From positions 32,001 through 96,000 of IMG/VR virus record IMGVR_UViG_3300010373_000002: a stretch of 64,000 nucleotides of DNA; one strand, written 5' to 3'. The notes under the pieces are model-generated. The model made no database searches and was not told the origin of the DNA. It was given only the letters and a program-made list of their open reading frames with translations. Source of the stretch: a virus. Position numbers and translations under genes: made by a program. Of this stretch, positions 11,371 through 63,394 are shown one piece after another; within the stretch, counting starts at the first letter, position 1; the number at the start of each line of letters is the position of its first letter.

Positions 11371-12981
11371 ATGCGATCGAAATGGTATCTGTATTACATC
11401 TCCGGTCCCATGACCGGCCTTCCCGAGTACAACTACCCCGCATTCAACCACGCCGCAAAAGTCGCCAGAGAGATGCTTGCCGACGCCGAGTTGGCGAACT
11501 CCTACGAGTTGGTATTCAACCCTGCCGAATCGTTCGGCGGCGACACGACGAAGGCCCGCGAAACCTATTTCGTCGAAGACATGCTCGCCCTGGCTCGGTC
11601 GGAACGCATCATCTTGCTGCCCGGTTGGGAGAAGTCGGCCGGAGCGAGATTGGAAGTGGCGGCGGCGAAGGAGATGGGACTCGGCTTCCACAAGTTCATT
11701 CTCAAGGAAGACGGCGAGTGGGACATCGGCGAGATGCGAGAAGCGCCGGATATCGAAGTGATCTGCAAGGAAGACACCCTGGCGATTCCAAGGACGGCAT
11801 ATTCCGCTTACTGTCCCCGAAACTACACGACTTGGTTGATCGGCGGCGATTGGGATAAAGCTCTAACCAAACCTCTGCCTCCGACCGACACGCTTCCTCA
11901 TGAGAAGGCCGAATACTTCGTCGATTATCGCGAGAAAGAAGATGATCCGCCGAAACCGGCTACTCCCGGAACTCACGACATCGGCCACGGCATCATCGCG
12001 AAACAAGTCGGCGGGATCGGCGGGACGATCGAGTTCAACGGCGTCCGCCTTCCGTTCACGAACTGGGAAGCGACGAAAGAGAGGATCGACGACGGCGACT
12101 CCGAACCGCCGCCGACCTCGAACTCCTTCTCCGACAAAATTAAAACGACTGTCGAGTTCACGGAATCCAGCAAAGATTGGATTAAAGAATTTCTGCTCGA
12201 AGAAGCCAAAAAGCAAGCGTCGTGGGGTGAACCGTTCCCGACCTCTCCGCCTGACGATGACACTGTTTATGATGAGGTTGGCGCTACTTTATGCGACAAG
12301 ATAGCGAAAGACTTCACCAAATACAGTGACGAGATCATTCTCGGAAAACTGGAAGGCGCAATCCGAGAGAATCCTTCTTTCCATCCCTCGGAAAAGAATC
12401 TTTCTTCTCTTTTCGGTTGCGGCGAACCATTACCGACGAAGCCGCCTAGAGATATTTCGAGCAAGAGAGAAGATGGGGTTTCTCTCGCGAGGGATCAAAT
12501 GAGAGACGTATGGAGAACTGTTGGTATCAGTGATTTATACGGCTATCCTTGCGTTGTTCAGTCGGACTTCGAACACTTCCCTATTCCAAAAGAATTCACT
12601 CCTCCGCCGAATCCTCCCGAGTCTCCTCCTTCGGACGGCATCAAACGCTTTGAGACGGGCGCAGTCAGATCGACCGACGCGGAAGGATTTCGCTACGACC
12701 TCATCTCGCCGATCGCTCTCAGGGAACTCGCCAGAACCTACGCGGAAGGTTCGCTCAAGTACGGCGACTTCAACTGGGAAAAGGGTATGCCGGTTCACGA
12801 TCTCTTGAACCACGCCATCCCGCACACCTATGAAGCCTTGGCGGGCGAAGACGTGCTCTTGAATCTCACTCACGCCGCTTGGGGATTGATGGCCGCGATC
12901 CACTCTTACATCCTCTGGCCGCATCTCAACGCCGGTCATCTTCGCGGTCCCGGTTGCACGCCGCCGACTCCGACTGAATAA
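11371..12981 (+). CDS. DUF4406 (nucleoside deoxyribosyltransferase-like) fused to DUF5664 dATP/dGTP diphosphohydrolase domain
   Basis: N-term YISGPMTGLPEYNYPAF..FNPAE..LPGWEKSAGARLE; C-term FETGAVRS..RYDLI..GSLKYGDFNWEKGM..HAAW. Confidence 0.85.
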   Translation: MRSKWYLYYISGPMTGLPEYNYPAFNHAAKVAREMLADAELANSYELVFNPAESFGGDTTKARETYFVEDMLALARSERIILLPGWEKSAGARLEVAAAKEMGLGFHKFILKEDGEWDIGEMREAPDIEVICKEDTLAIPRTAYSAYCPRNYTTWLIGGDWDKALTKPLPPTDTLPHEKAEYFVDYREKEDDPPKPATPGTHDIGHGIIAKQVGGIGGTIEFNGVRLPFTNWEATKERIDDGDSEPPPTSNSFSDKIKTTVEFTESSKDWIKEFLLEEAKKQASWGEPFPTSPPDDDTVYDEVGATLCDKIAKDFTKYSDEIILGKLEGAIRENPSFHPSEKNLSSLFGCGEPLPTKPPRDISSKREDGVSLARDQMRDVWRTVGISDLYGYPCVVQSDFEHFPIPKEFTPPPNPPESPPSDGIKRFETGAVRSTDAEGFRYDLISPIALRELARTYAEGSLKYGDFNWEKGMPVHDLLNHAIPHTYEALAGEDVLLNLTHAAWGLMAAIHSYILWPHLNAGHLRGPGCTPPTPTE

Positions 12982-19996: not shown

Positions 19997-21688
19997 ATGG
20001 CCTTTAATGTCAAAGCCGCCGTCGAAGTCAACTCGTCGGGGGCCGATACCAACGGCGGCGGTTTCGACATCGGGGCCACTTTCGCGACCGACTTGGCCGC
20101 GACCGTCGCCAATACGTCCGCTCCGGTCGTGACCGCCGCCTCTTACACCGGCGGGTTCGTCGCCGGAGACGTGGGAGCCTTTCTTTATATCGCCTCGGGA
20201 ACCAATTGGATTCCGGGATTTTATCAGATCGCCTCCGTCGCGGGCGGAGCGGCAACCCTTTCGGCCGCTTGCGCCACCGTGGCATCGCCGACCGCCGGAA
20301 CTTGGGGTCTCGATTACTCGCGATCCACGTCGCCGCGCATCTCCTACGTCGATATGGCGATCGACCCGACCACTAACACCCAATTCACTTCCTCCACTAA
20401 CGCCGTCCTGCCGAATATCGTCGGCAACTATATCAAGGTCGCCTCGGGAACCGGATTCACGGTCCAAGTCGTCGAAGTCGTCTCCGTTTCCGGCGGAAAA
20501 GCGACATGCGACAAATCGCTGGGAACCCTCTCATCGACCGGAGGACACGGCGCTCTCGGCGGGGCCTTGGCGACGATCAACGCCGGGTTTGCTCTCATCA
20601 TCGGCTCGAACCACCTTTGGATCAAGAGCGGCAACTATACGACGGCGACCACGATCTCCACGTCCGTCTCCGGCAACGATACGCTCACGACCGGGCCGAC
20701 GATGATCTCCGGCTACAAAACGGTGCGCGGCGATATCGGTTATGGGCCGCTCGGCCTGAACGCTTCGAGCAGGCCCGTCGTGACGGCCACCGCCAGTTCG
20801 TTAAACGTGATCCAGACCAGCGGTCAATTCACGATCATCGAAAATCTTGTCGTCGATTCGGTCGGCGTCACGTTCTCGGCGAACACTTGCATTACCGCCA
20901 CAGGCGCTTACACGAAAGTAAGAAACTGCCTGTTGAAAAACGGATCGAACGCAGGCGTTGCGCTCGGAGGCCAATTCCAGGCGCTTGAATACAGCGAAAT
21001 CCTCGGCATGGTCGGCTCGAATCCCGCGATCAACGTCACCCAAGTCAGCACCATTGTTTACGGCTGTTCGGTCCACGACAACGCGGGCGACGGCTTCCAC
21101 TCGACGAACACCGGCGACATCATTCTCAACTCCCTGTTCGCCAACAACGCGGGCGTGGGCATCAACCTGGGGACGTTCGGCGTCGGCCACTTCATCATCG
21201 GCAACACGATCGTCGGCAGCGGCTCGCACGGCATCGGCAACCCCTCGCTCGTGTTCGGCCAGTTGGTGATCCGCGACAACATCATCGCCGACAACGGCGG
21301 CTGGGGCATCTTGGCCGTATCCTCGGGAAGCGTTCCCGACGATCCCATGTGGGACGGCAACCTCTACTACAACAACACGTCGGGCGCGATCGGCAACCTT
21401 GTCTCCGGCGCTCTCAACGCGGTCCCTTACACTCATGTCTACGACGTCAATCCGGCCTCGGCCGATCCGGTCACGTCGCACACCTCGGGCACGGCCAATT
21501 TCCCCACCGATAACTTCGGCCCGGTCACGACAGCGGGACCCAAGGCGGCGACATGGCTCTCCGCGTTCCCCGGCAACACGGCCACGGCCAACTATCGCGA
21601 CATGGGAGCCGTCCAGCATCAAGACGCGGGAAGCGGCGGTTCGCCGGGCAGACCGTTCTTCGTGCGGGGCAGCGTCATGCCGACCTAA
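19997..21688 (+). CDS. right-handed beta-helix spike/fibre protein
   Basis: repeats SVHDNAGDGF, LFANNAGVGI, IRDNIIADNGGWGI; C-terminal DMGAVQ. Confidence 0.8.
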   Translation: MAFNVKAAVEVNSSGADTNGGGFDIGATFATDLAATVANTSAPVVTAASYTGGFVAGDVGAFLYIASGTNWIPGFYQIASVAGGAATLSAACATVASPTAGTWGLDYSRSTSPRISYVDMAIDPTTNTQFTSSTNAVLPNIVGNYIKVASGTGFTVQVVEVVSVSGGKATCDKSLGTLSSTGGHGALGGALATINAGFALIIGSNHLWIKSGNYTTATTISTSVSGNDTLTTGPTMISGYKTVRGDIGYGPLGLNASSRPVVTATASSLNVIQTSGQFTIIENLVVDSVGVTFSANTCITATGAYTKVRNCLLKNGSNAGVALGGQFQALEYSEILGMVGSNPAINVTQVSTIVYGCSVHDNAGDGFHSTNTGDIILNSLFANNAGVGINLGTFGVGHFIIGNTIVGSGSHGIGNPSLVFGQLVIRDNIIADNGGWGILAVSSGSVPDDPMWDGNLYYNNTSGAIGNLVSGALNAVPYTHVYDVNPASADPVTSHTSGTANFPTDNFGPVTTAGPKAATWLSAFPGNTATANYRDMGAVQHQDAGSGGSPGRPFFVRGSVMPT

Positions 21689-21698
21689 AGGAGTTGCC

Positions 21699-21791
21699 GT
21701 GCTCGCCGATTCCATGTGGGTTCTCGGTTCCTGTTACGTCCTCGTTTTGACGCTCGTTCTATTCACGTTCGCGGCGAGAGAGGGAGACTAA
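21699..21791 (+). CDS. 30-aa single-TM peptide
   Basis: AAGGAG RBS, GTG start, WVLGSCYVLVLTLVLFTF; ends 1 nt before protease gene. Confidence 0.55.
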   Translation: MLADSMWVLGSCYVLVLTLVLFTFAAREGD

Positions 21792-21792
21792 T

Positions 21793-22683
21793 ATGTTTGT
21801 TCCCGGATGGAATCCCGACTTTCGCGATCAAGCCTTGGAGACGATGAAGACGGAAGGCGTCAAACTCTACCGCTCCGGTTTTCGAGCGACGCCCATCCCC
21901 AAGGCGATGTCTTTGTCATCGAAGATGATAAGATATGCAAACCAATTATCCGCAGGAACGTGCTGGGTCCACGGTCCTATTCAGGCGGTTGAAACGACCG
22001 GCAATCGTTTCGGCTTGGACGTCTTCCCGATCTGTCGGCGATTAGTCGGCTGGATCGGCAAACAGTTGGAAGGCGACGACGGCAATCCATCGGACGGCGG
22101 CAGCGGTTATGACGCCTTTATGGCGATGACTCGTAGGTTCGGCGGCGTCGCTCACGAATCGCTCTGTCCGTACACCGACAACGAAACGATCCTCGGCAAA
22201 AAGCCGCCCAAGAAAGCGTTCGAGGACGCCAAGGATCATTGGCTGGACACGATCGTTCGCGTCGAGAACTTGGACGACGCGAAACAGTGGATCGCACGCG
22301 GTCACGCGGTCGCGATCGGCTCGTGGTGGCCGACCGACTGGCAGGAACCGGACGCGATCAAGCGGTATGTCGGCGACGGCGAGTACGGCCACGAAAGATG
22401 CTTGGTAGGCTATGCCGAGGCGGGCGTGTTCGACCGGCACGAATACTTCGAAGAGATCAACTCTTGGGGCCTCGTTTACGATCCGTTGCCTACCGATCTC
22501 GCCGCCAAGGTTCCCGGCTACAAGTCGTGGACGCCCGATAAATCGGCCGGATTTTGGGTCCAAAGGGAATGCGAGGAAGAGATCACCGAAGGCAAGGGAA
22601 ACGCCGAATTCTCGACGATGACGAATCTGGACAATTTCAAACCTTTGGGCGAGGAAGTCTTCGAAATCATGGGAGCGTACTAA
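21793..22683 (+). CDS. papain-family (C1) cysteine peptidase 1
   Basis: NQLSAGTCW (oxyanion Q, catalytic C), GHERCLVGY (H), INSWG (N). Confidence 0.85.
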   Translation: MFVPGWNPDFRDQALETMKTEGVKLYRSGFRATPIPKAMSLSSKMIRYANQLSAGTCWVHGPIQAVETTGNRFGLDVFPICRRLVGWIGKQLEGDDGNPSDGGSGYDAFMAMTRRFGGVAHESLCPYTDNETILGKKPPKKAFEDAKDHWLDTIVRVENLDDAKQWIARGHAVAIGSWWPTDWQEPDAIKRYVGDGEYGHERCLVGYAEAGVFDRHEYFEEINSWGLVYDPLPTDLAAKVPGYKSWTPDKSAGFWVQRECEEEITEGKGNAEFSTMTNLDNFKPLGEEVFEIMGAY

Positions 22684-23280
22684 GTGAAACTTCTCATTCT
22701 CTTGGCCGCGATCCTCGGACTAGGGGCCGGCCCTAAGACTCCGGTCTCGGGCACGATCCACGTCACTCAAATCTACTCCGACATGGCGACGACGCGGAAC
22801 TCGGTGGACCTGCAAATCGACAAGCCGACCCGCCGCTCGCTCGCCGCCGGCCAATGTATCTTTCGCGGTCTGACTATTTCCGACCCCTTGGTGACGAGTC
22901 TCGGCTATCAACCGACGATCCAGAACACTTTGATTCCCTTGGTCGTGTTTCAGGATAACTCGGGAGCTATCCTCGGGGCGATCCACGATCCCACTCCGGC
23001 TCAAGTCGTCGCTTATGTCGCCGGATTGCGGGCGATCACTCCGACGCCGACTCCCAACCCGACACCCACGCCGCCGCCGACTCCCGTTCCTCCTCCCGTG
23101 CCGCCGCCGATTCCGCCTCCGGTCCCGACGCCGACGCCGACGCCTCCGCCTAGTCCCTCGCCTTCTCCGTCGCCTTGCGTGATTTACGTGTACGTGACCG
23201 TGAACGTCAACATGGCCGCCGCTCAAGCTCCGACCTATTATCCTACTCCGACTCTTTATTATGTTCCGTGGTATAGATAA
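22684..23280 (+). CDS. secreted protein with Pro/Thr-rich linker
   Basis: signal peptide MKLLILLAAILGLGAG; ~45-aa PT/PPP tract; lies between the two peptidases. Confidence 0.8.
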   Translation: MKLLILLAAILGLGAGPKTPVSGTIHVTQIYSDMATTRNSVDLQIDKPTRRSLAAGQCIFRGLTISDPLVTSLGYQPTIQNTLIPLVVFQDNSGAILGAIHDPTPAQVVAYVAGLRAITPTPTPNPTPTPPPTPVPPPVPPPIPPPVPTPTPTPPPSPSPSPSPCVIYVYVTVNVNMAAAQAPTYYPTPTLYYVPWYR

Positions 23281-23293
23281 CATAGGAAGTATT

Positions 23294-24112
23294 ATGTTTT
23301 ACATATCATCGGATACATCTCAAGTAAAACCGACCCCGAGCATCTACGCCGGCGGCAATTGGCGGTCGCTCTCTCGGAAAGTCTCGAAACATCAGAAACC
23401 GTGCCGCCATTTCGTCGCCGACCCGGCAACCGTTCTTCCCGCGTCGATCGACTTGGACGTGCTTAACGCGCCCATCTTGGATCAAAGCCAATACGGCTCG
23501 TGCGGCGGTTGGTCCACTGCAGGGGCCTTGATGCTCGCCAGGAACCTTGCAGGCCAAGACGCCGAGGAATTGTCGGGTAGTTATATCTACTCGTATACCA
23601 ACGGCGGCGTCGATCAAGGCTCGGCGATTTCGGACGACGTGGACGCGGCGACGACATACGGAACCTGTAGCGATTCGCTTTGCACCGCCGACATGATCTA
23701 CCGCTATCAGATTCCCGCCGGAGCCGACACGCAAGCGAAACGGTTCCGCATCGGCGACTCTTTGGCGCTCACCGACTCCACGCTGTTCCAAGCGGCCCTG
23801 GCGGCGGGGCGACCGATCGTCTGCGGTATCGAGGCCGGGCCTGACTTCTCGAACCTGGATGCAGAAGGCGTGCCGCCGGTCTCTCAAGGTCAAGGAAACC
23901 ACGCGGTCTGCCTGGTCGGCTACTTGACGCTTCCCTCGGGCCGATTCGCCTTCAAGATGCGGAACAGTTGGGGAGCGGATTGGGGCGTGAACGGCTACTG
24001 CTACTGCTTGCCGCAACACTTCTCCTCGGCCGATCAATCCGACTCAAGAGCGATCGTCTCGGCCTTGGACGATCCCCAAGATTCCTCGATACCTCCAGTC
24101 GTGTCCGCCTGA
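23294..24112 (+). CDS. papain-family (C1) cysteine peptidase 2
   Basis: LPASIDL, DQSQYGSC, GNHAVCLVGY, RNSWGADWGVNGY. Confidence 0.92.
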   Translation: MFYISSDTSQVKPTPSIYAGGNWRSLSRKVSKHQKPCRHFVADPATVLPASIDLDVLNAPILDQSQYGSCGGWSTAGALMLARNLAGQDAEELSGSYIYSYTNGGVDQGSAISDDVDAATTYGTCSDSLCTADMIYRYQIPAGADTQAKRFRIGDSLALTDSTLFQAALAAGRPIVCGIEAGPDFSNLDAEGVPPVSQGQGNHAVCLVGYLTLPSGRFAFKMRNSWGADWGVNGYCYCLPQHFSSADQSDSRAIVSALDDPQDSSIPPVVSA

Positions 24113-24166
24113 TATTCGCCAATTCGCATCTCTCTGAACTCGCGCAAAGCGAGAGCGAGCGCAACC

Positions 24167-26899
24167 ATGAGCAACGCGATCGGCAATATGTCCGCCGGAG
24201 GCGGCGGCGGTTCGTCCACCGCTTTAAGTTCGGGGCAGAACGTCTACGACGTATCGAAATACGGCGCGCTTCCCGACCCCGGCCACAGCAATTCGCTCAA
24301 AGGGGCAATCGACACGATCAGCGGTCTCGTCGGGTCCGGCGACCCGGTGACGATTTATATACCATCGGGCACTTATACGATTTTCGACTCGATTTGGCTG
24401 CCGTCCAATCTCTGTTCCGTCGTCGGCCAAGACATGCAAACGACGGTGATCAACGGGTTCGGCTTGCCCGCGTTCATCGTCGGTTTCCCCAAAGAGTACG
24501 GCAACCAACCGATCACGGCGGGTCACTGGCCGGCGATGCCCACCGCGCCGGGAGTCACGAACGGCATGGATTCGGCGTGGGCCAACGGCATTATCGGCAA
24601 TCGCAAGGGATTCGCGATGTACGACCCGGCGACGGGTTTAACGAATCCCGATTTGCGGTACTTTTATTTTCAGAACACGCCGATCACCCAAGGTCTCACG
24701 AACGACTATTGGACCGTTACGAATAAGTTCACTTTAGAACTTGCCGCCCTTCATCGCACCGCTTCGCCGACCGCGAGCGTGCCCGCGATCGGGCCGGGAC
24801 TGCCGCCGCTCGGCTACGGCGTCTGCTTGGCGAATTTCACCAGTCCGAGCATGACTCGGCCTTGGTCCGTCTTGGCTCAAGGAATTCAAGGGAACGTCGT
24901 CTCCAGCGCCGCCAACTCGGTCACGATCACGAAAACCTCGTCGGTCTTGGGGATCAACGGCGGCAATATTCCGGTCGGCTCCTTGATCCAAGTGACGACG
25001 GGAACCGGCGCGGGCCAGATCAACCAAATTACCTCGATCACTCCCTCCGGCGGCAATTTGATTTTTGCCGTCCAAAACTCATGGAACGTCAACCCCGGAG
25101 CAGGCGCGACCGTGGTGGTTCTTTGCGGCTTCTCTATCTCGGTCAATATCGCCACGACGCCGCTTTGCGATGGACAAATCCCCGGATACGACCCCTCGCA
25201 AGACGGCACTCAAAGCGGAATCGGCTTGATGTTCCCGACCGGCATGGGTGCTCAACTCTCGGCATTGACGTCGGCGAATTCGATCTGGCGGTTCAAGTTC
25301 CAACTCGATCTCACCGCGTCTTCCTTGGCGAATCTCGCTCAAGGCTGGGTCTCCATCAATGGGTCGGCGTCGGGAAGTTTCGCGCAAATGACGGCGGTCA
25401 GCGGTCCCGCGCTGCCTTTGCCCAATCCGCATTTCGTCGAAGCGTCGTTCGGCTTCGTCAGCGTCGGCGCGCCGATCTTGCAACCGCAACTCCAAATCTT
25501 CCCCGGCTATTCGATGGTCCCGTTCGTCTCTTGGAACGGCGGCGTCACCCCCACGTTTACCGCAGACCAAAAGGCCGCTCTGCCGGGTTGGGACGTCACC
25601 TTGCTCGGTATGTCGCTGGTCGCGGGAAACTCCGGCGGCAACGTCTACACGACCGCCGCGACTCTGGCGCTCAACACGAGCGGACCTCGGCCGACCGGAA
25701 CGATCGGCGACAACTTCTCTTACGGCCCCTCCGGCGTGGCGAACATGCTGGCTTGGCTCCCTTTCTCCGACCCCGGCCTTACCGACTCGTTCGGCGGGCG
25801 AATGGCGGCGATCACCCCGCTCGGCGGCTCGGGAACTCGGGGCATCGTCTTGCCGATGATCTATTTGGGCGACAACTCGACGCCGATCGGCAATCAGTGC
25901 AGCGTGTCCAATCTTACCGTCAGCGGCAGTTCCAACCCCTCGGTCGGCATGGCGTTCTGGGCCGGTCCTTGCTACGACATGCACTTCGATAACATCTATG
26001 TGAATTCGTTCCAGAACGGCATCTGCCAAGTCCCGTTCAACAACGGCTACATCTTGGACGTCAGCTTCCTCGGGACCAAGAGTTGCGCCGACGCGGGAAT
26101 GTTTCTCTTCAATACATACGGTCGGATCAAGAATTACCACACGACCTCGCAACGTACCGGACTCCGCTGCGTCTCGGCGACCTTGGAGGTCGGCACATGG
26201 ATCAACGGCAACGTGGTGGCGGGCCTCCATACGGCGAGAGGCCATACCGGCGAGTATAGTTCCTCTTGCTTATTCATGGAATCGTTCATCAACGACAACG
26301 AGGCGCAGTTCGGCACGCCGGCCGCGTCGATCGCCATCATCGACTACGACAACGGGCCGACCAATTCGGTCACGGCCTTGCGACTGCCGAACCTCAATCT
26401 TTCGAGTCCGAGCGGCATCGCCCCTTATATCAAGCTCCGCAATATCGTCCCCGCCGGTTGCAGTACGCTCCGCTTGACCGGCCCGGCCTGTTCGCCTAAA
26501 GGCGCTCCACTGGTCCAGATGGTCGGCGGCAACACGGGATGGGACGGCGTTATCGAAGACGTCAACTTCAACACCGTCTCGCCCGACTTCGACTACACGC
26601 CCATTCTCGATTGCACCTTCGGACCCCGCACCAGCCGCATCCGGCTCGAAATTTACTTGGACGGCCTACCGATCGCCGGACCTTGGGCGGCGGGAGCGAC
26701 CGTAATCAAGATTCGCGCGAGCGCCTTGCTCCCCGGTATGCCGACCTCTTTCGTCTGCGTCCAAGGGGGTCAATACGGCACGAACTCGCCGCCGGTCTGG
26801 GACGCTCGCGACCCTTACTCGCCCGATGGAACCAACAACGCCATTTGGATGACGACCACAAGAACCAATTATGGTTCATGCACCATTACAGGTTTATAA
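24167..26899 (+). CDS. large tailspike-like protein with pectate-lyase-3-type N-terminus
   Basis: VYDVSKYGALPD..AID..IYIPSGTY..I.LPS; G/S/T/N-rich 910 aa. Confidence 0.75.
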   Translation: MSNAIGNMSAGGGGGSSTALSSGQNVYDVSKYGALPDPGHSNSLKGAIDTISGLVGSGDPVTIYIPSGTYTIFDSIWLPSNLCSVVGQDMQTTVINGFGLPAFIVGFPKEYGNQPITAGHWPAMPTAPGVTNGMDSAWANGIIGNRKGFAMYDPATGLTNPDLRYFYFQNTPITQGLTNDYWTVTNKFTLELAALHRTASPTASVPAIGPGLPPLGYGVCLANFTSPSMTRPWSVLAQGIQGNVVSSAANSVTITKTSSVLGINGGNIPVGSLIQVTTGTGAGQINQITSITPSGGNLIFAVQNSWNVNPGAGATVVVLCGFSISVNIATTPLCDGQIPGYDPSQDGTQSGIGLMFPTGMGAQLSALTSANSIWRFKFQLDLTASSLANLAQGWVSINGSASGSFAQMTAVSGPALPLPNPHFVEASFGFVSVGAPILQPQLQIFPGYSMVPFVSWNGGVTPTFTADQKAALPGWDVTLLGMSLVAGNSGGNVYTTAATLALNTSGPRPTGTIGDNFSYGPSGVANMLAWLPFSDPGLTDSFGGRMAAITPLGGSGTRGIVLPMIYLGDNSTPIGNQCSVSNLTVSGSSNPSVGMAFWAGPCYDMHFDNIYVNSFQNGICQVPFNNGYILDVSFLGTKSCADAGMFLFNTYGRIKNYHTTSQRTGLRCVSATLEVGTWINGNVVAGLHTARGHTGEYSSSCLFMESFINDNEAQFGTPAASIAIIDYDNGPTNSVTALRLPNLNLSSPSGIAPYIKLRNIVPAGCSTLRLTGPACSPKGAPLVQMVGGNTGWDGVIEDVNFNTVSPDFDYTPILDCTFGPRTSRIRLEIYLDGLPIAGPWAAGATVIKIRASALLPGMPTSFVCVQGGQYGTNSPPVWDARDPYSPDGTNNAIWMTTTRTNYGSCTITGL

Positions 26900-26908
26900 G
26901 GACACATC

Positions 26909-27328
26909 ATGGTTTCCACGGGCTTTCTCACCGATTTGATCGCCAACGATTTGCAGGCGTCGATCTTCCACGGCGCATCTTTTCCGGCGTTCCCGACGAA
27001 CCTCTATCTCGCCCTCTCGCGGGTGAACCCGAACCGGCAAAACGCGATTCCCGCTCCGTTTACCGAACTAACCGGCAGCAATTATTCGCGAACCTTGATC
27101 GCTTGCACTTCGGGAAATTGGACCTTAAACGCGACCGGCCAAGCGTACAACACGCTCCAAATCACGCTTCCCGTGCCGACCGCTCCTTGGCTGACCGTTT
27201 TCGGCTGGGGCCTCTACGACGCTCCGACCGGCGGCACTCTTTGGTGGTGCGGAAATCTGCCCGGATTAGTGTTCACGACGACTTCGGCCCCGATCATCGC
27301 CGCAGGCGCTCTCATCCTCCAAATCTAA
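26909..27328 (+). CDS. virion minor/fibre-associated protein
   Basis: LYLAL..ELTGSNYSR..ITLP..W.TV..GLYDAPTGGTL pattern common in phage structural genes. Confidence 0.75.
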   Translation: MVSTGFLTDLIANDLQASIFHGASFPAFPTNLYLALSRVNPNRQNAIPAPFTELTGSNYSRTLIACTSGNWTLNATGQAYNTLQITLPVPTAPWLTVFGWGLYDAPTGGTLWWCGNLPGLVFTTTSAPIIAAGALILQI

Positions 27329-27341
27329 GAAAGAGGAAACG

Positions 27342-29216
27342 ATGCCGCTCAGCGTCATATTTTGCGATGCCGGAGTCGCCGGTTCCTACTCGGTTCGGAT
27401 CAGGCAACTCTACGGCAGCCGTTTCTTTTTCGACTTCGGCGCACTCGCCTTTTCCGCCAGTCCCGGAACCCCGTCGCACGCCTTGACGGCGACCTCGGGA
27501 GCGATCGCGGGCGCGCTCGAATACTTCCTGGCCTTGACGCCGGTCAGCACTTGGATCGACGGCCAATACGCCGCCTATATAGATAACGGTTCCAACACGG
27601 TCGATATCGCCGGTTTCATTATGATCAACGGCGACTCGATTCCGTTAAGCCTCGCCCTGATTACCTCGTCGATCTTCGGAGCGACCGCCTCGTCGTTCAA
27701 TACCGGCGGCACGATGGGAGCCAAGATCAACGCGGCAGGATCGGCCGGAGACCCATTGGCGAACCCGACCACGACCTACTCGGCCGGCGGCACGGTCGGC
27801 AACCTGATCGTCACCAACCTCAACGAGTCGATCACGGCGGCGGCTTCCGCAGTCACTCTGGCGGCGGGACAAGTTCCGGCTCACTTCACCGCTTTGGCGA
27901 TCGACTTGGCATCGGGCGGCGTGACCGTCAAGACGAACAACGACAAGTCTAATTATGTCTTGGCGGCGGGACAAGTTCCCGGCAATTTCACGAGCCTTCA
28001 AATCGACGCTTCCACGGGCGGCGTCACGGTCAAAACCAATAACGACAAGACCGGCTACGCCTTGTCGGCGGGCGAGCATAACCAGATCGCCGTCGATGTC
28101 TTGGACGCTCCCGCTTTGACCCACGACATCAACCTTACGATCGGCGCGAAGATCAATCTCTCCGGTTCCGCCGTCGATCCGCTCGCCAACGCGCCTTCGG
28201 TGTACGCCGCTCCCGGCACGGTCGGTCATCAATTAGTGACCAACCTGGATGAGATGATCAGCGCCGCCGCCGCCTCGGCCACTCTGGCGGCCGGTCAAGT
28301 GCCGGCCAACTTCACCGCCTTGGCAATCGACTCGGGAACCGGCGGCGTGACGGTTCATGCGAACTCGGACAAAACCGGCTACGCCTTGACCACTTCGGAG
28401 CATACCGCCATCGCCGGGGACGTCTTGAACGCTCCGGCGGCGAGCTACGACACGAACTTGACGATCGGGGCCAAGATCAACCTTTCCGGTTCCGCCGTCG
28501 ATCCGCTCGCCAACGCCCTTTCGGTGTACGCGAATCCGGGAACGGTCGGCAACCTGATCGTGACCAACATCGACGAGAAGATCACTCATGCCGGAGACAG
28601 CGTGACTTTGGCTCCCGGTCAAGTTCCCGCCTTCTTCACCAGTCTCGCCATCAATCAACAGACCGGCGGCGTGAACGTCTTCGAGAACCTTGATAAATCC
28701 GGTTACGCCTTGACCTCGGCCGAACATCTCGCCGTTTCCTCGGACATCTTGAACGCGGTCGCTTCCACTTACGACGTCCCTTTTTCGATCGGAGCCAAGA
28801 TCAACGCTCTAGCGGTACTTGCCCCCGGCCAACTGCCGACCAACTTCTCGGCGATGGCGATCGACGCTTCCACGGGCGGCGTGACTGTTCACACGAACCA
28901 AGACAAGACCAACTACACCATTCTCGGCTCGTCGGGAACCGGCGGCATCTCGATCAATCACAACACGCCGACCACGGACAACCTTAGAGCGGTCAACACG
29001 GCCGGAGTCGGTATTCCCAACGTCCAAATCTTCGCCTTCCTGGCGAGCGATTACCAAGCCGGCAACATCGGCTCGGCGTTCCTGCAAGCGACGGCGGTCA
29101 CGGGACCGGACGGACGCTGGCTGAACACGATGATGCTCGCGCCGCAGACGTACACGTTCCTCTTCGGCGACCCCGGCGAATTCCAAACCGGCGCGAAAAC
29201 CTTAACGATCACATAA
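27342..29216 (+). CDS. repetitive fibre-like structural protein
   Basis: GAKIN repeat at 27714, 28140, 28464, 28788 (324 bp period); five GGV.V..N.DK..Y motifs. Confidence 0.85.
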   Translation: MPLSVIFCDAGVAGSYSVRIRQLYGSRFFFDFGALAFSASPGTPSHALTATSGAIAGALEYFLALTPVSTWIDGQYAAYIDNGSNTVDIAGFIMINGDSIPLSLALITSSIFGATASSFNTGGTMGAKINAAGSAGDPLANPTTTYSAGGTVGNLIVTNLNESITAAASAVTLAAGQVPAHFTALAIDLASGGVTVKTNNDKSNYVLAAGQVPGNFTSLQIDASTGGVTVKTNNDKTGYALSAGEHNQIAVDVLDAPALTHDINLTIGAKINLSGSAVDPLANAPSVYAAPGTVGHQLVTNLDEMISAAAASATLAAGQVPANFTALAIDSGTGGVTVHANSDKTGYALTTSEHTAIAGDVLNAPAASYDTNLTIGAKINLSGSAVDPLANALSVYANPGTVGNLIVTNIDEKITHAGDSVTLAPGQVPAFFTSLAINQQTGGVNVFENLDKSGYALTSAEHLAVSSDILNAVASTYDVPFSIGAKINALAVLAPGQLPTNFSAMAIDASTGGVTVHTNQDKTNYTILGSSGTGGISINHNTPTTDNLRAVNTAGVGIPNVQIFAFLASDYQAGNIGSAFLQATAVTGPDGRWLNTMMLAPQTYTFLFGDPGEFQTGAKTLTIT

Positions 29217-53124: not shown

Positions 53125-53539
53125 ACGAACGCCCGTCTCGTGTGCTTTGGAACCGGAAACCGAGTCCGATAAGGCGTTCTTGAACAAGATCGGCCAACTG
53201 TTCAATCTTTACATGAGGCAGAGAGCCGTGCCGAAATACAAGGCCGCCGCCGAGAAAACCCGCAGAGAGGTCGCCATGCGGCTGTACGCCAGGAATTATA
53301 ACGACATGATCGACTCGCCGATCAACGTCAATCGCCATGTGCGCGTCGGTTCGTACAGGTTGACGGCGATCTCTCTGAATGACTTCGACATGATTAGAGC
53401 GCCGTTCGTGAACCACGCCCGAGTCAAGGGAATCAAGTGTAGAGACACGGAATCCCTTGAATATAAAGAGAAGAATAAGTGGACCCCGACCGATCCAAGA
53501 AATCTTTACCGCTTGAGGTTACATGAAGACTTTCAATAA
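53114..53539 (+). CDS. hypothetical protein
   Basis: AAGGA RBS; overlaps neighbours. Confidence 0.7.
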   Translation: MPRERTPVSCALEPETESDKAFLNKIGQLFNLYMRQRAVPKYKAAAEKTRREVAMRLYARNYNDMIDSPINVNRHVRVGSYRLTAISLNDFDMIRAPFVNHARVKGIKCRDTESLEYKEKNKWTPTDPRNLYRLRLHEDFQ

Positions 53540-54011
53540 GTTGGTTTTTTTGTCGGTATTATCTCTGATCGGCGTTACCTTTATCGGTCAATCGGCGGCG
53601 GGATTTCCTAAGCGGTTTGTCGTCACGGAAAATCACCAAAAGGCAACGATTACTAAAGGGGTCGAGTTGCATGTGAAATTACCTGAAATAAAACTTGGGT
53701 ATACGTGGCGTATGAAGCGTAAATATATCCAGTATACGGAATACCAAAGCGAGGACGAGAACCAACCGTTCGTTTCTACCCGAATGATTCCCACGGACGA
53801 TTTTGTTTTTCCCGATGAAATCCTTTCCTTCGTGGCCGTGACGACGAACCGTGTTAAAGCCAAAAGAAAGAAGGATTATCGGCAATCGGTCATCTATTTG
53901 TTCAAAGGAAAGAAGGTCGGCTCGGGTGTGATGGAGTTTGAGAGCACGTCTTTCTCGGCCGATTTTGTCCCGCACACGCAGCGATTCGAGGTCGAGGTCG
54001 AAGTCCAATAA
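53523..54011 (+). CDS. secreted protein, divergent chagasin-like (I42) cysteine-protease-inhibitor fold
   Basis: signal peptide; VTEN..ATITKGVELHVKLP....GYTW; YLFKGKKVGSGVMEF; RFEVEVEV match chagasin strand pattern; canonical loops altered. Confidence 0.5.
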   Translation: MKTFNKLVFLSVLSLIGVTFIGQSAAGFPKRFVVTENHQKATITKGVELHVKLPEIKLGYTWRMKRKYIQYTEYQSEDENQPFVSTRMIPTDDFVFPDEILSFVAVTTNRVKAKRKKDYRQSVIYLFKGKKVGSGVMEFESTSFSADFVPHTQRFEVEVEVQ

Positions 54012-59950: not shown

Positions 59951-62900
59951 ATGCTCAACGATAGCGTTTCCACGTCCAACGGTCACAAAAACGGCCAAGT
60001 TGCCGACGATTATCTTCACCGTCATTGCGGTATGAAGTTCGAGGCTACGTTCAACCAGACCGACCCCTTAATCACGAATAAGGATCAATTCAAGTGGGGC
60101 AAGAGGCCCATCAAGATCACGGCGGCTGACGGTAAGGTCGTGTTCGAGCGGAAAGAGTGCGAGTTCCCCGAGTCATGGTCCGACAACGCTTGCCAAGTGG
60201 TTGCGTCGAAGTATTTCTACGGGACTCCCGGCAAGGAGCCTTGCGAGAACAGCGTTGACGAACTCGTGACTCGCGTGGTCAACACGATCGCCGACTGGGG
60301 CTTCAAAGACGGTTACTTCGACCGAGCCGAGGCGTGGCGATTCGAGCGGGAATTGTACTCGCTCTGCGTCGGCCAGTATGCCAGCTTTAACTCGCCGGTT
60401 TGGTTTAACGTCGGTCTTCACGATCACTATGGAGTCTCAAGCGATTCAACTGGGTCCCGATGGGATGACGAGAAGAAGCAGGCTGTTCCTGCCGAGGATG
60501 GATATAAGTATCCACAGGCAAGCGCATGTTTTATCTTGGGTGTCGATGACAACATGGATAGCATTCTCGAACTCGCTAAAACCGAGGGAATGTTGTTTCG
60601 TTATGGGTCTGGCGCTGGCTCTGATCTTTCCACGATCCGATCAAGTAAGGAATTTCTTACCGGCGGCGGCAAGCCTTCCGGTCCTCTTAGTTTTATGATA
60701 ATCTACGACGCCGTGGCTAGCGTAGTTAAGTCGGGTGGAAAAAACCGTCGCGCCGCGAAGATTCAGACATTGAAATGTTTTCATCCAGACGTTGTAGATT
60801 TTATCGAATGTAAGCAGAAAGAAGAGAAGAAGGCTAAAGCCCTTATCGCTCAAGGCTACGAGGCGAACTACAACGGCGAAGCGTACTCGTCTGTTTGTTT
60901 CCAAAACAGCAACCTCTCTGTTCGTCTCAGCGACGACTTCCTTTACGCCGTCGAGAACGACTTGCCGTGGACCACGAAAGCGGTGACGGACGGTCGCGAC
61001 ATGGAGACGTTCCAGGCTAGAGACATCCTCCGCAAGATCGCCGAGAACGCTTGGCAATGCGGAGACCCCGGCGTCCAGTACGAGGACACGATCCAGAAGT
61101 GGCACACGCTCCCGAACACGGCCCCGATAAATTCGTCGAACCCATGCTGTTTTGTCGGCGAGACGTTAATCAAGACTTCTTTTGGTAGCCTATCTATCGA
61201 GTACCTGGCAAGCCGAGACTCCGAGGGCGGCTGTCCTCTTCCGTCCGTGGTTTCTTACGACAAAGAAGATAAATGCACGCAATGGGGAGAAATCGTTAAG
61301 GCTTGGAAGTCTGGCGAGACAACTGAACTTGTGGAAGTGACGATCCGCTCGGGAGAAAAATTTCGTTGCACGCCGGAGCACGTTTGGTACGTGGATGGGT
61401 TCCATCCATGCGAAGCTAAAGACTTAATGGGTCATCGGGTAGATTTCTACTTGGATTCCTCTAGTGCGACACAAAAAGAATTAGTTGTTTCCGTCGAAAC
61501 ACTGAAATTGGCCGATCCTGTTCCGGTTTACGATATCGAGGTTAGGGACAATCACAATTTCACAATCACATCTGAAAATTCTCTTCGTGGGTATTTCGTC
61601 AGTAATTCGGAATACATGAGCATTGATGACAGCGCTTGCAATTTGTCTTCTTTGAACCTCGTTAAGTTTCTGCGTGCCGATGGAACCTTCGACACGGATC
61701 GCTATCGTGCCGCTGCTCGCCTCATGCTAACTGCCCAAGAGATTCTTGTTTCCCGTTGCGGCTACCCCACGAAGAAAATCGCCGAGAACGCACACCGCTT
61801 CCGCCAGCTTGGCCTTGGGTATGCGAACCTCGGCTGTCTCTTGATGCGTATGGGACTCCCCTACGACTCCGACGAAGGTCGCCACGTCGCCGCTTGCCTC
61901 ACGTCGCTGCTAACGGCCGAGGCGTACCGAACGAGTGCGGAGATCGCCGGAATCAAGGGACCGTTCGAGGGATTCGAGGTCAACAAAGATCCGATGCTTA
62001 ACGTGCTAGCGATGCACGCCCAAGCTGGAGACGATTTATTGAGGGCCGGAATTCCTGGAAGGCTTGACTACGCTCAGTCTGAGGCTTGGACGGAATGCTC
62101 GAAGTTGGCGCAAAAGTATGGTGTCCGCAATTCGCAAGTCACTGTTATAGCTCCAACTGGCACGATTGCACTCATGCAAGATTGCGACACAACAGGCATT
62201 GAGCCTGACCTCGGCCTTGTGAAAACTAAGTATCTTGCCGGCGGCGGCACAATGAGGATCGTCAACCAGAGCGTCAAGGCGGCGCTCAAGAACCTCGGCT
62301 ACTACGACGCACCTGTCTCGGACATCCTTGAATATATCGAACAGCATGGAACCGTCGAAGGTTGCAAGTCGATCGAATCGAAAGACCTTGCCGTCTTCGA
62401 CTGCTCGAATCCCGGCACGAAGGGCGGCCGGGCGATTCACCACATGGGCCACGTCAAAATGTTGTCGGCGGTCCAGCCGTTCGTCTCGGGCAGCATCTCG
62501 AAGACGGTCAACATGCCCGAATCCGCTACCGTCCAAGACATCTCCGATACCTATCTTGAAGGGTGGAAACTCGGCCTGAAGTGTATCGCCATCTACCGGG
62601 ACAATTCCAAGGGAAGCCAACCCCTCCAGATCGGTGACACTAAGGAAGGGGAGAAGACGGAACGGATCAAGGTCTCTACGCCGAAGGAGACTCCCGAGGA
62701 ACAACTTAAAAGGCTAATGAAGGCTCTGAATCCTCATGCGAGTCCGTCGCTAATCGAAGGCGGTATGAAATATCTCCCGGTCCCCAACAAGCGAGAGCGG
62801 CTTCCCGACACTCGCGAGAGCATCACTCACAAGTTCAACATCGGCGGCCATGAAGGCTACTTGACCGTTGGACTGTTCCCCGATGGACGCCCTGGGGAGC

Positions 62901-63394
62901 TATTCGTGACCATCAGCAAGGAAGGCAGTACGATTGCCGGTCTAATGGATATGATCGGCGTGACGGTCTCCCTGTGCCTCCAGTACGGCGTTCCGCTGCA
63001 AGTGCTGGTGGACAAGTTCAGTCATACGAAGTTCGACCCATCCGGGTTTACAAAAGAGAAGGACATTCCGATCGCGTCCAGCATAGGCGACTATGTGTTC
63101 CGATGGTTGGCGATGAAGTTTATTCCCGGCTACCGCGAGGCGAACACACCGAAGCGAGAGGAGAAGGCGGTAATTGCCGGCGACTTATGCGACGGTTTGG
63201 CCGAACGAGAGAAGCAAGAAGAAATGTCCGACCGAGCGATGAAGAAACTGACCGACAGGCTTCATGAAGTCAAAATCTCCCATCCCAAGCCTCAGACCGA
63301 CGCCCCGATCTGTGACGTGTGCGGCTCTCTGACGGTTCGATCGGGAACCTGCTACGCTTGTCGTAATTGCGGCTCCAGCATGGGTTGCTCTTGA
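59951..63394 (+). CDS. nrdJ: class II (B12-dependent) ribonucleotide reductase with intein, TSCPD domain and C-terminal Zn ribbon
   Basis: FNSPVWFN, SACFI, SGG..RRAAK, NPC[intein]SEY, ACNL, IAPTGT, SKTVN, YRD, CDVCG..CRNCG. Confidence 0.95.
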   Translation: MLNDSVSTSNGHKNGQVADDYLHRHCGMKFEATFNQTDPLITNKDQFKWGKRPIKITAADGKVVFERKECEFPESWSDNACQVVASKYFYGTPGKEPCENSVDELVTRVVNTIADWGFKDGYFDRAEAWRFERELYSLCVGQYASFNSPVWFNVGLHDHYGVSSDSTGSRWDDEKKQAVPAEDGYKYPQASACFILGVDDNMDSILELAKTEGMLFRYGSGAGSDLSTIRSSKEFLTGGGKPSGPLSFMIIYDAVASVVKSGGKNRRAAKIQTLKCFHPDVVDFIECKQKEEKKAKALIAQGYEANYNGEAYSSVCFQNSNLSVRLSDDFLYAVENDLPWTTKAVTDGRDMETFQARDILRKIAENAWQCGDPGVQYEDTIQKWHTLPNTAPINSSNPCCFVGETLIKTSFGSLSIEYLASRDSEGGCPLPSVVSYDKEDKCTQWGEIVKAWKSGETTELVEVTIRSGEKFRCTPEHVWYVDGFHPCEAKDLMGHRVDFYLDSSSATQKELVVSVETLKLADPVPVYDIEVRDNHNFTITSENSLRGYFVSNSEYMSIDDSACNLSSLNLVKFLRADGTFDTDRYRAAARLMLTAQEILVSRCGYPTKKIAENAHRFRQLGLGYANLGCLLMRMGLPYDSDEGRHVAACLTSLLTAEAYRTSAEIAGIKGPFEGFEVNKDPMLNVLAMHAQAGDDLLRAGIPGRLDYAQSEAWTECSKLAQKYGVRNSQVTVIAPTGTIALMQDCDTTGIEPDLGLVKTKYLAGGGTMRIVNQSVKAALKNLGYYDAPVSDILEYIEQHGTVEGCKSIESKDLAVFDCSNPGTKGGRAIHHMGHVKMLSAVQPFVSGSISKTVNMPESATVQDISDTYLEGWKLGLKCIAIYRDNSKGSQPLQIGDTKEGEKTERIKVSTPKETPEEQLKRLMKALNPHASPSLIEGGMKYLPVPNKRERLPDTRESITHKFNIGGHEGYLTVGLFPDGRPGELFVTISKEGSTIAGLMDMIGVTVSLCLQYGVPLQVLVDKFSHTKFDPSGFTKEKDIPIASSIGDYVFRWLAMKFIPGYREANTPKREEKAVIAGDLCDGLAEREKQEEMSDRAMKKLTDRLHEVKISHPKPQTDAPICDVCGSLTVRSGTCYACRNCGSSMGCS
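61148..61606 (+). mobile_element. 153-aa mini-intein in NrdJ (no homing endonuclease)
   Basis: begins CFVGET, block B CTPEH, block F VYDIEV..NHNF, ends VSN with +1 Ser; removal restores NPCSEY. Confidence 0.93.

Follow-up and report, generated by a model that had tools for sequence, protein, structure and literature searches.

The window analysed here is a stretch of 64,000 nucleotides, bases 32001-96000 of the 113,401-bp contig IMGVR_UViG_3300010373_000002, which carries a 123-bp terminal repeat and is classed in IMG/VR as a complete virus with direct terminal repeats. Within this window, a cassette of four co-oriented genes (21699-24112, plus strand) encodes a short transmembrane (TM) peptide, two papain-family cysteine proteases, referred to below as C1a and C1b, and an exported protein located between the two, its partner protein. 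Positions refer to the window unless they are given as genome positions. The four genes are the following.

21699..21791, plus strand: TM peptide of 30 aa with one TM segment (MLADSMWVLGSCYVLVLTLVLFTFAAREGD), GTG start
21793..22683, plus strand: C1a, 296 aa, papain-family cysteine protease, ATG start
22684..23280, plus strand: exported partner protein, 198 aa
23294..24112, plus strand: C1b, 272 aa, C1A papain-family cysteine protease

The genes and their products

The gaps between the four genes are 1, 0 and 13 nt. The independent codon-usage gene call and the list of open reading frames (ORFs) agree on this arrangement, so that the tight coupling described in a first-pass annotation of the same DNA stands. 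Neither promoter-like nor terminator-like sites were seen between the genes. Upstream of the 30-aa peptide gene, a strong AGGAG is spaced 5 nt from the GTG start at 21699. The gene was accepted by the codon model (score 9.2), and its product has a single hydrophobic segment (residues 6-24) and a 4-residue tail. The stop codon of this gene is placed 1 nt ahead of the C1a ATG at 21793, and the ribosome-binding site of C1a (GGGAG) sits within the end of the peptide gene. From this layout, the peptide is predicted to be translationally coupled to C1a. It had been proposed as a holin-like factor, but none of the usual holin features was recognised in it, and its role can only be inferred from the sequence.

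The two proteases are very divergent from each other (26% identity over 156 aa, E 9e-4), and a hydrophobic N-terminus or signal peptide was found neither in C1a nor in C1b. For C1a, the match to Pfam Peptidase_C1 is marginal (E 8.5e-4, 19.9 bits, under the cut-off of 20.7), and a sequence search of the PDB gave no match. In an alignment of the C1a family comprising 16 homologues, Gln51 and Cys57 are invariant, and His200 and Asn223 are nearly invariant. The corresponding catalytic motifs in C1a are Q51, C57 (AGTCW), H200 (YGHE) and N223 (INSWG). An AlphaFold model built on the family alignment (predicted local distance difference test, pLDDT, 90.9; predicted TM-score, pTM, 0.90) shows the two-lobe papain fold. 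The best structural match of this model is xylellain (3OIS; Foldseek E 1.7e-12), with which 239 residues align in VIA at Z 27.0 and a root-mean-square deviation of 2.2 A; Z values of 22-24 were obtained for pro-Der p 1, procathepsins and papain. In the VIA alignments, mature C1A enzymes start at about residue 25-35 of the model, whereas zymogens start at residue 1 via the end of their propeptide. Thus, C1a probably begins with a short cleft-occupying prosegment like that of xylellain. According to the model, the enzyme is likely to be made in a latent form. The predicted membership of C1a in family C1 (PF00112 / MEROPS C1A) is based on the modelled fold together with the motifs.

When 1.84 billion representative proteins were searched with a profile, 51 clusters were assigned to the C1a family at E<=1e-30, nearly all with proteins of about 300 aa. 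The nearest homologue (P0006, encoded on a 58-kb contig) is 67% identical to C1a. Two members of the family, P0014 (444 aa) and P0061 (669 aa), contain inteins, one of them a mini-intein and the other a long form. The intein site is located exactly before the catalytic Cys (QAGT / C...VHN / CW), and the nucleophile doubles as the +1 extein residue. Inteins occupy such sites in proteins that are under strong functional selection, and their position directly before the catalytic Cys argues for selection on the catalytic activity of the C1a family.

For C1b, the match to Pfam Peptidase_C1 is above the cut-off of 20.7 (E 2e-12, 48.1 bits), and further matches are to phrog_16701 'peptidase' (5e-11) and to cathepsin L (3F75; 3e-10). 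In the alignment with cathepsin L, Gln64, Cys70, His203 and Asn224 of C1b coincide with the catalytic residues, the motifs being Q64, C70 (GSCGGW), H203 (GNHA) and N224 (RNSWG). The protein has no I29 propeptide but carries about 47 extra N-terminal residues. Judged by its sequence, C1b is an unambiguous C1A peptidase, and the alignment over residues 48-239 predicts a papain fold for it. What had been noted before about the pair, namely that both proteases keep the Gln/Cys/His/Asn residues, diverge strongly and lack signal peptides, is therefore borne out by the family alignment of C1a, the alignment of C1b to cathepsin L, the low mutual identity and the absence of hydrophobic N-termini.

The exported partner protein is composed of a signal/anchor segment (residues 1-20), a globular domain (about 21-115), a proline stalk (116-166) and 32 C-terminal residues rich in Tyr and Val, seven of which are Tyr. 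The signal-like segment and the Pro-rich stalk, which contains 28 Pro in 51 residues, agree with the earlier description of this protein. Going by its sequence pattern, the globular domain might be thioredoxin-like. No match was obtained in protein family libraries, and a PDB sequence search returned nothing meaningful. In a collection of 5.8 billion proteins the partner protein has no real homologues, only Pro-rich noise, and in the ESM Atlas only weak, unnamed viral clusters were retrieved.

Relatives of the proteases and their gene neighbourhoods

Homologues of C1a in a readable gene context were present on a 23-kb IMG/VR contig (L020, the same contig as L024), on a 6.7-kb contig (L021), in two prophages of Singulisphaera sp. 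PoT (L022 and L023) and in three further genomes of the order to which Singulisphaera belongs (L040, L041 and L042). At these loci (L020/L024, L021, L022, L023, L040, L041/L042), the homologues show 31-42% identity; a metagenome scan for further relatives added only short contigs. In five independent loci (L020, L021, L022, L023 and L041), the C1a gene is positioned just upstream of terS/terL amid small membrane proteins. The recurring gene order is a coiled-coil protein, a bitopic and often Pro-rich TM protein, C1a, a protein with an N-terminal TM segment or signal peptide, several proteins with one or two TM segments, terS, terL and portal, the 1-2-TM proteins between C1a and terS comprising 40-120 aa. 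An enzyme without a signal peptide that is encoded among small membrane proteins, with the terminase genes following directly, is the textbook form of a lysis cassette.

The C1a modules of the two Singulisphaera prophages are 77-89% identical, whereas the adjoining TerL and portal proteins share only 22-25% identity. Therefore, the block moves as a cassette, and mosaic exchange is typical of lysis cassettes. In these prophages the TM protein upstream of C1a has an i-spanin-like topology; no lipoprotein partner was seen for it there. The L021 cassette additionally contains, upstream of terS, genes for a CAP/SCP-domain protein and for an exported trypsin-like (Trypsin_2) protease. The ORFs L021:211-714 and L021:3267-4043 are those of the CAP and Trypsin_2 Pfam matches, as assigned from the ORF sequences. 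By analogy, this second, unrelated protease in the same slot may parallel C1b in the phage. At L040, the order is a TM protein, C1a, a Pro-rich/Tyr-rich protein with a signal peptide and 2-TM proteins; this group is set among host genes with no phage genes nearby. At L043, in a genome of the order Isosphaerales, a C1a homologue stands alone, with no membrane partners.

Synteny in relatives had been put forward as a check on the cassette. The C1a gene recurs in the lysis slot in the five loci described above. The cassette is absent from those IMG/VR loci whose capsid genes are related (about 32% identity), so that no close relatives are available for synteny, and phage records searched with the DNA of the cassette gave no match.

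The distribution of these relatives also bears on the host. The C1a family occurs in 4 of the 121 genomes of the Isosphaerales order, which contains Singulisphaera, and relatives of the TnpB proteins of the phage are restricted to Planctomycetota in a protein-level search of 185,579 species genomes. Therefore, the host is likely a Planctomycete. At the DNA level, the insertion sequence (IS)/TnpB regions of the phage gave no match in 401 Planctomycetota genomes.

C1b has few close relatives. A homologue with 33% identity is encoded in the 595-kb uncultured phage LR756511 (L051), where the gene of an exported 251-aa protein precedes it with a 4-nt overlap. Residues 21-113 of the 198-aa partner protein resemble the C-terminal domain of this 251-aa protein (blastp 27.7 bits, pairwise E 9e-5). 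In a Smith-Waterman comparison the pair scores 89, while shuffled sequences give 30.5+-5.2 and none of 2000 shuffles attains 89, and the 251-aa protein is the sole L051 protein that scores against the partner protein; the match was not recovered by a database-scale tblastn. The likeness is modest, yet consistent in position, and from the sequence the globular domain of the partner looks like a conserved exported companion of C1b. The earlier suggestion that the Pro-stalk protein is spanin-like finds no support in this, nor in the protein itself, which has no lipobox Cys after the signal segment and no coiled coil. Downstream of the pair, LR756511 encodes two exported Pro/Tyr/Val-rich proteins (L051:9984-11402), one of them with an Extensin_1 match (4.7e-6). 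Their composition recalls the Tyr-rich tails of the 198-aa partner and of the L040 protein.

Two other phage proteins are related to C1b. One of them, gp163 of the Burkholderia jumbo phage FLC9 (30% identity), stands alone. The other is a 753-aa protein of the Alicyclobacillus phage MMB025 (XXN61434.1), whose label 'endolysin' is an automatic annotation. Its N-terminal domain is C1b-like (25%, pairwise E 4e-12) with the Gln/Cys/His/Asn residues of C1 kept, and the overall architecture is Peptidase_C1, Ig-like, Rv2525c GH-like (GH25-like) and PG_binding_1. Going by these predicted domains, the MMB025 protein is an example of a C1b-like domain that became part of a lysin architecture directed at the wall. 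The IMG/VR matches of C1b (L006-L010) tell nothing about a function in phages; located on giant-virus-like contigs, they represent ordinary cathepsins that carry both a signal peptide and an I29-like propeptide.

Taken together, the cassette looks like two fused modules. The first one, consisting of the TM protein and C1a (and an exported Pro-rich protein), has its counterpart in the lysis-slot cassettes of Planctomycete prophages. The second one, the exported partner and C1b, has its counterpart in phage LR756511.

Muralytic enzymes, candidate holins and the proposed role of the cassette

Muralytic enzymes were searched for in two ways. Each gene call of 40 aa or more in the 113-kb genome was scanned against Pfam at E<=0.01, and a six-frame search was performed with hidden Markov models (HMMs) of seven families, i.e. 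Phage_lysozyme (GH24), SLT, Amidase_2, GH19, Peptidase_M15_4, NlpC/P60 and GH25. M23 is covered by the gene scan. Neither search revealed a muralytic family in the phage, and there is likewise no CHAP or NlpC/P60 match. The absence of recognisable muramidase, amidase and M15/M23 genes, first noted for the 64-kb window, thus extends to the entire 113 kb of the genome at the sensitivity of Pfam, and no endolysin was recognised in the remainder of the genome; this is an absence at the sensitivity of HMMs and no proof. The cassettes with C1a homologues contain no peptidoglycan hydrolase families either, and none of the seven six-frame families was found in the two Singulisphaera prophages, nor is a peptidoglycan hydrolase among the 25 families listed for 87 downstream proteins of these prophages. 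One candidate was discarded, since the phrog_2252 'endolysin' match of a 536-aa protein at 11371 falls on a dGTP-diphosphohydrolase domain and is no lysin.

Two side observations were made in the course of these searches. In the two prophage regions of Singulisphaera sp. PoT (L044-L047), a GDSL-like lipase/acylhydrolase domain was found in 2 of the 87 scanned proteins (2.6e-14), and one protein of this set has AhpC/Redoxin/Thioredoxin_8 matches. In three bacterial genomes of the Isosphaerales order (G001, G453 and G477; 5.6-10.5 Mb), the six-frame HMM search found no NlpC/P60, GH24 or GH25, and SLT in one of the three. At the level of such matches, their common set of peptidoglycan hydrolases appears unusually thin for the genome size.

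With respect to holins, two adjacent small membrane proteins are encoded at genome positions 20525-21100 (L002:1525-2100), 11 kb before the window and 33 kb from the cassette. The first one comprises 91 aa with two TM segments, and the second one 92 aa with two TM-like segments and a highly charged C-terminal tail. By these features they are holin-like and represent candidate holins. In the C1a-related cassettes, several holin-like TM proteins adjoin C1a itself.

We propose that the cassette is a protease-based lysis module, a reading to which we give an even chance of being correct. It is suggested by the C1a homologues that occupy the terS/terL-proximal slot among membrane proteins in five loci, by the absence of a recognisable muralytic enzyme in the phage and in the two Singulisphaera prophages, by the fusion of a C1b-like domain to GH25-like and peptidoglycan-binding domains in the MMB025 'endolysin', by the conservation of the pair of exported partner and C1b in LR756511, and by the second, unrelated protease in the L021 slot. 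A more far-reaching version, which we put forward tentatively and regard as rather doubtful, is that the C1 proteases and their exported partners are the actual lytic enzymes and replace muralytic endolysins altogether, in widespread uncultured phages including Planctomycete phages and prophages.

Timing, localisation, latency, activation, substrates and lysis phenotype in the following scheme are inferred. C1a and C1b would be made in the cytoplasm without signal peptides and would probably be latent in the manner of xylellain, with a short N-terminal segment in the active-site cleft. The 198-aa partner would be exported by means of its signal/anchor segment and would present its globular domain, the stalk of about 51 residues and the Tyr-rich tail in the envelope. 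At the close of the infection cycle, permeabilisation of the membrane would give the proteases access to the envelope; this could be brought about by the 30-aa peptide, by the holin-like 2-TM proteins of genome positions 20525-21100, or by both. The activated proteases would then cut envelope proteins and/or peptide links of the peptidoglycan, and might either replace a muralytic endolysin or work beside it.

Several observations weigh against a lysis module. More than half of the phage genes are without annotation, and a novel muralytic enzyme may hide among them. For the 87 downstream proteins of the two Singulisphaera prophages, 17 weaker families lie beyond the 25 listed. There is no convincing holin adjacent to the proteases of the cassette. 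The link between the 91-aa candidate holin and a membrane protein of a prophage C1a cassette is weak (blastp 7e-4, hhalign probability 16%), and no homologue of the 30-aa peptide was found. We know of no C1 peptidase that cuts peptidoglycan. The first-pass annotation started from the premise of a protein cell wall, which is outdated as Planctomycetes do possess peptidoglycan (PMC4432640; PMC12673574); the target of the proteases could therefore be the peptide stems of peptidoglycan, envelope proteins, or both. Finally, the cassette is placed between capsid/fibre-like genes and the head-tail adaptor, away from the terminase and from the end of the tail genes. This location among fibre-like genes would suit virion enzymes too, as can be seen from the genes of the late region.

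8790: TerL
12991: portal
15062: S78-type prohead protease
16671: HK97-type capsid, followed by small genes
19997: 563-aa protein, fibre-like, directly before the four-gene cassette
21699-24112, plus strand: four-gene cassette
24167: 910-aa protein with a weak pectate-lyase-like match
26909-27328: 139-aa protein, similar to the fibre-I protein gp80 of podophage GP4 (Pfam 1.8e-17, PDB 8JOU 1.7e-4)
after the gene at 26909 and before the head-tail adaptor: 624-aa protein
29227: head-tail adaptor
31568: tail completion protein
33636: tape measure

Four other explanations were considered. The possible muralytic enzyme among the unannotated genes leads to the first of them, in which the proteases are accessory lysis factors that remove a protein layer or the tethers between wall and outer membrane, in a role like that of LysB or spanins, beside a muralytic enzyme that escaped recognition. 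The peptidoglycan of Planctomycetes (PMC4432640), the many endolysin-sized ORFs of the phage that lack annotation, and the mycobacteriophages, which meet extra envelope layers with extra lysis enzymes (PMC6116114), are in line with this explanation. We nevertheless judge it unlikely, as the six-frame search found no muralytic family in the phage or the two prophages and the conserved cassettes, save for the protease and CAP genes in L021, have no other enzyme-sized soluble protein.

The position of the cassette inside the structural block, with the 563-aa gene on one side and the 910-aa, gp80-like 139-aa and 624-aa genes on the other, would be explained if the proteases were virion-associated entry enzymes on neck or tail fibres that digest a protein surface layer (S-layer, crateriform structures or holdfast) at adsorption, much like depolymerases attacking polysaccharides, and the absence of signal peptides is what one would expect of virion proteins. 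However, C1a is encoded outside of the structural block in the five other loci, upstream of terS and amid small membrane proteins. Furthermore, the proteases are translationally coupled to a TM peptide and a signal-peptide protein, neither of which one would expect in a virion, and no fibre-docking domain was detected in C1a or C1b. Entry is thus less likely than lysis, and we consider it improbable. Of the two roles between which the first-pass annotation had left the choice, lysis has gained from the five terminase-proximal C1a loci, the absence of a muralytic enzyme and the MMB025 fusion; entry has gained nothing beyond the fibre-like neighbours in one phage.

An intracellular function of the proteases in host takeover, anti-defence or protein processing, with membrane proteins as unrelated neighbours, has an equally small chance of being correct in our view. 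Such a function would be compatible with the lack of signal peptides in both proteases, with the mostly intracellular location of bacterial C1A enzymes of the xylellain type (PMC10380794) and with the homologues in FLC9 and L043, which stand alone without membrane partners. On the other hand, it leaves unexplained the repeated coupling to membrane and exported partners, the terminase-proximal slot and the fusion of C1 to peptidoglycan-binding and GH25-like domains, and the phage already has an S78 prohead protease. Least of all do we expect remodelling of the envelope or exclusion, in which the exported Pro/Tyr-rich partner and perhaps a chagasin-like inhibitor would alter the periplasm or wall of an infected or lysogenic cell, e.g. 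to block superinfection. The temperate nature of the phage with its integrase, the exported Pro/Tyr-rich protein, the extensin-like exported proteins adjoining the pair in LR756511 and a possible exported I42-like protein of the phage could be cited for this explanation; against it stand the cassette, which has no promoter of its own in the late operon, and the weak I42 assignment.

The I42-like protein is a lead only, a possible component of the system.

53523..54011, plus strand: possible exported chagasin-like (I42) protein, 162 aa

In the ESM Atlas this ORF is placed near Inhibitor_I42 clusters (feature score 0.88, structure TM-scores 0.55/0.62). No match to Pfam I42 (PF09394) was obtained, neither by hmmscan nor by the six-frame search at E<=10, and a PDB sequence search and a search of the proteins of 401 genomes were negative. 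The ORF has LGYTW as compared to NPTTGY[TQ]W in chagasin, and of the NPTTG, GXGG and RPW motifs only GYTW is kept. A single-sequence AlphaFold2 model (pLDDT 42) is unusable. Chagasins (I42) are inhibitors of C1 proteases, and a chagasin-like protein would, if true, suggest a periplasmic brake on the proteases.

Comparison with known systems and genomic setting

With the S-R-Rz/Rz1-type cassettes of lambda, the cassette proposed here as a lysis module shares a soluble, signal-less enzyme whose gene forms a tight cluster with those of small membrane and exported proteins and, in the relatives of C1a, the location of this cluster directly upstream of terS/terL and the mosaic exchange between differing prophages. 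It differs in that the enzyme is a C1 protease and not a glycosidase, an amidase or a known peptidoglycan endopeptidase, that the phage has no o-spanin with a lipobox and no confidently identified holin, and that its cassette lies inside the structural block and contains two unrelated C1 proteases.

Xylellain of Xylella fastidiosa (3OIS) is the best structural match of C1a and a sequence match of C1b (E 2e-6). Like xylellain and the short bacterial C1A enzymes, the phage enzymes have no signal peptide and no I29 propeptide but a short N-terminal segment that aligns with the cleft-occupying part of zymogen propeptides. C1a departs from xylellain in its sequence (only about 20% identity), in a conserved extension of about 60 residues at its C-terminus (LYPPLP...AKVPGYK...DFWV), and in being phage-borne, with membrane and exported partner genes. 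In a survey of the papain family, tailed phages were found to have acquired xylellain-type C1A genes, to which no function was assigned (PMC10380794).

The cysteine peptidases of endolysins, i.e. CHAP/C51, NlpC-P60/C40 (e.g. D29 LysA N4), Amidase_5 and PeiW/PeiP, also belong to the papain-like clan CA with Cys-His catalysis, and they cut wall peptide bonds in phage lysis (PMC10318531; bioRxiv 10.1101/2025.01.22.634383). None of them is a member of family C1, which has the full two-lobe papain fold with Gln/Cys/His/Asn and classically comprises protein endopeptidases. The MMB025 protein is closer in this respect, with its C1b-like N-terminal domain, the catalytic residues kept and a lysis position after tail fibre genes. 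It is, however, a multidomain lysin of the Gram-positive type with fused GH25-like (Rv2525c) and PG_binding_1 domains, whereas the phage proteases are free-standing and have no muralytic or wall-binding domain.

To our knowledge, peptidoglycan hydrolases are the means by which all well-studied tailed phages open their hosts. If true, lysis by a module of papain-type C1 enzymes would be a new enzymatic solution, based on an enzyme class that is not known to have been implicated in phage lysis before. If C1 proteases did replace endolysins, the rate-limiting barrier to lysis would be one that is cut at peptide bonds, either in envelope proteins or in peptidoglycan stems. Such a module would also provide concrete information on what gives the Planctomycete envelope its cohesion, which has been debated since the days of the 'protein wall'. 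A function would also be given to the xylellain-type C1A genes of phages that surveys left unexplained (PMC10380794), and a new class of candidate lytic enzymes and partners would become available. An arrangement of two proteases with an exported partner, and possibly with a chagasin-like protein, points to a protease system that is regulated. Our literature searches retrieved no work on phage lysis by proteases or on the lysis of Planctomycetes by phages, and nothing on the phage biology of this phylum; a review from 2025 names phages only in passing.

The codon-usage gene call of the 113,401-bp genome comprises 188 genes. Apart from the genes described above, these include an integrase, three TnpB/IS605 genes and genes of nucleotide metabolism. 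Because of the integrase, the phage is regarded as temperate; it is siphovirus-like in its layout, and the cassette is part of the late operon. Between the capsid and the head-tail adaptor (window 19997-29216), the 563-, 910- and 624-aa genes are fibre- or depolymerase-like and accompany the gp80-like gene. Fibre genes at this place are unusual in a siphovirus-like layout, which suggests neck or head fibres. At window 59951-63394, a region encodes a ribonucleotide reductase of 1147 aa, and an Intein_splicing match was found in the same protein set. Judged from these matches, the ribonucleotide reductase of the phage probably contains an intein.

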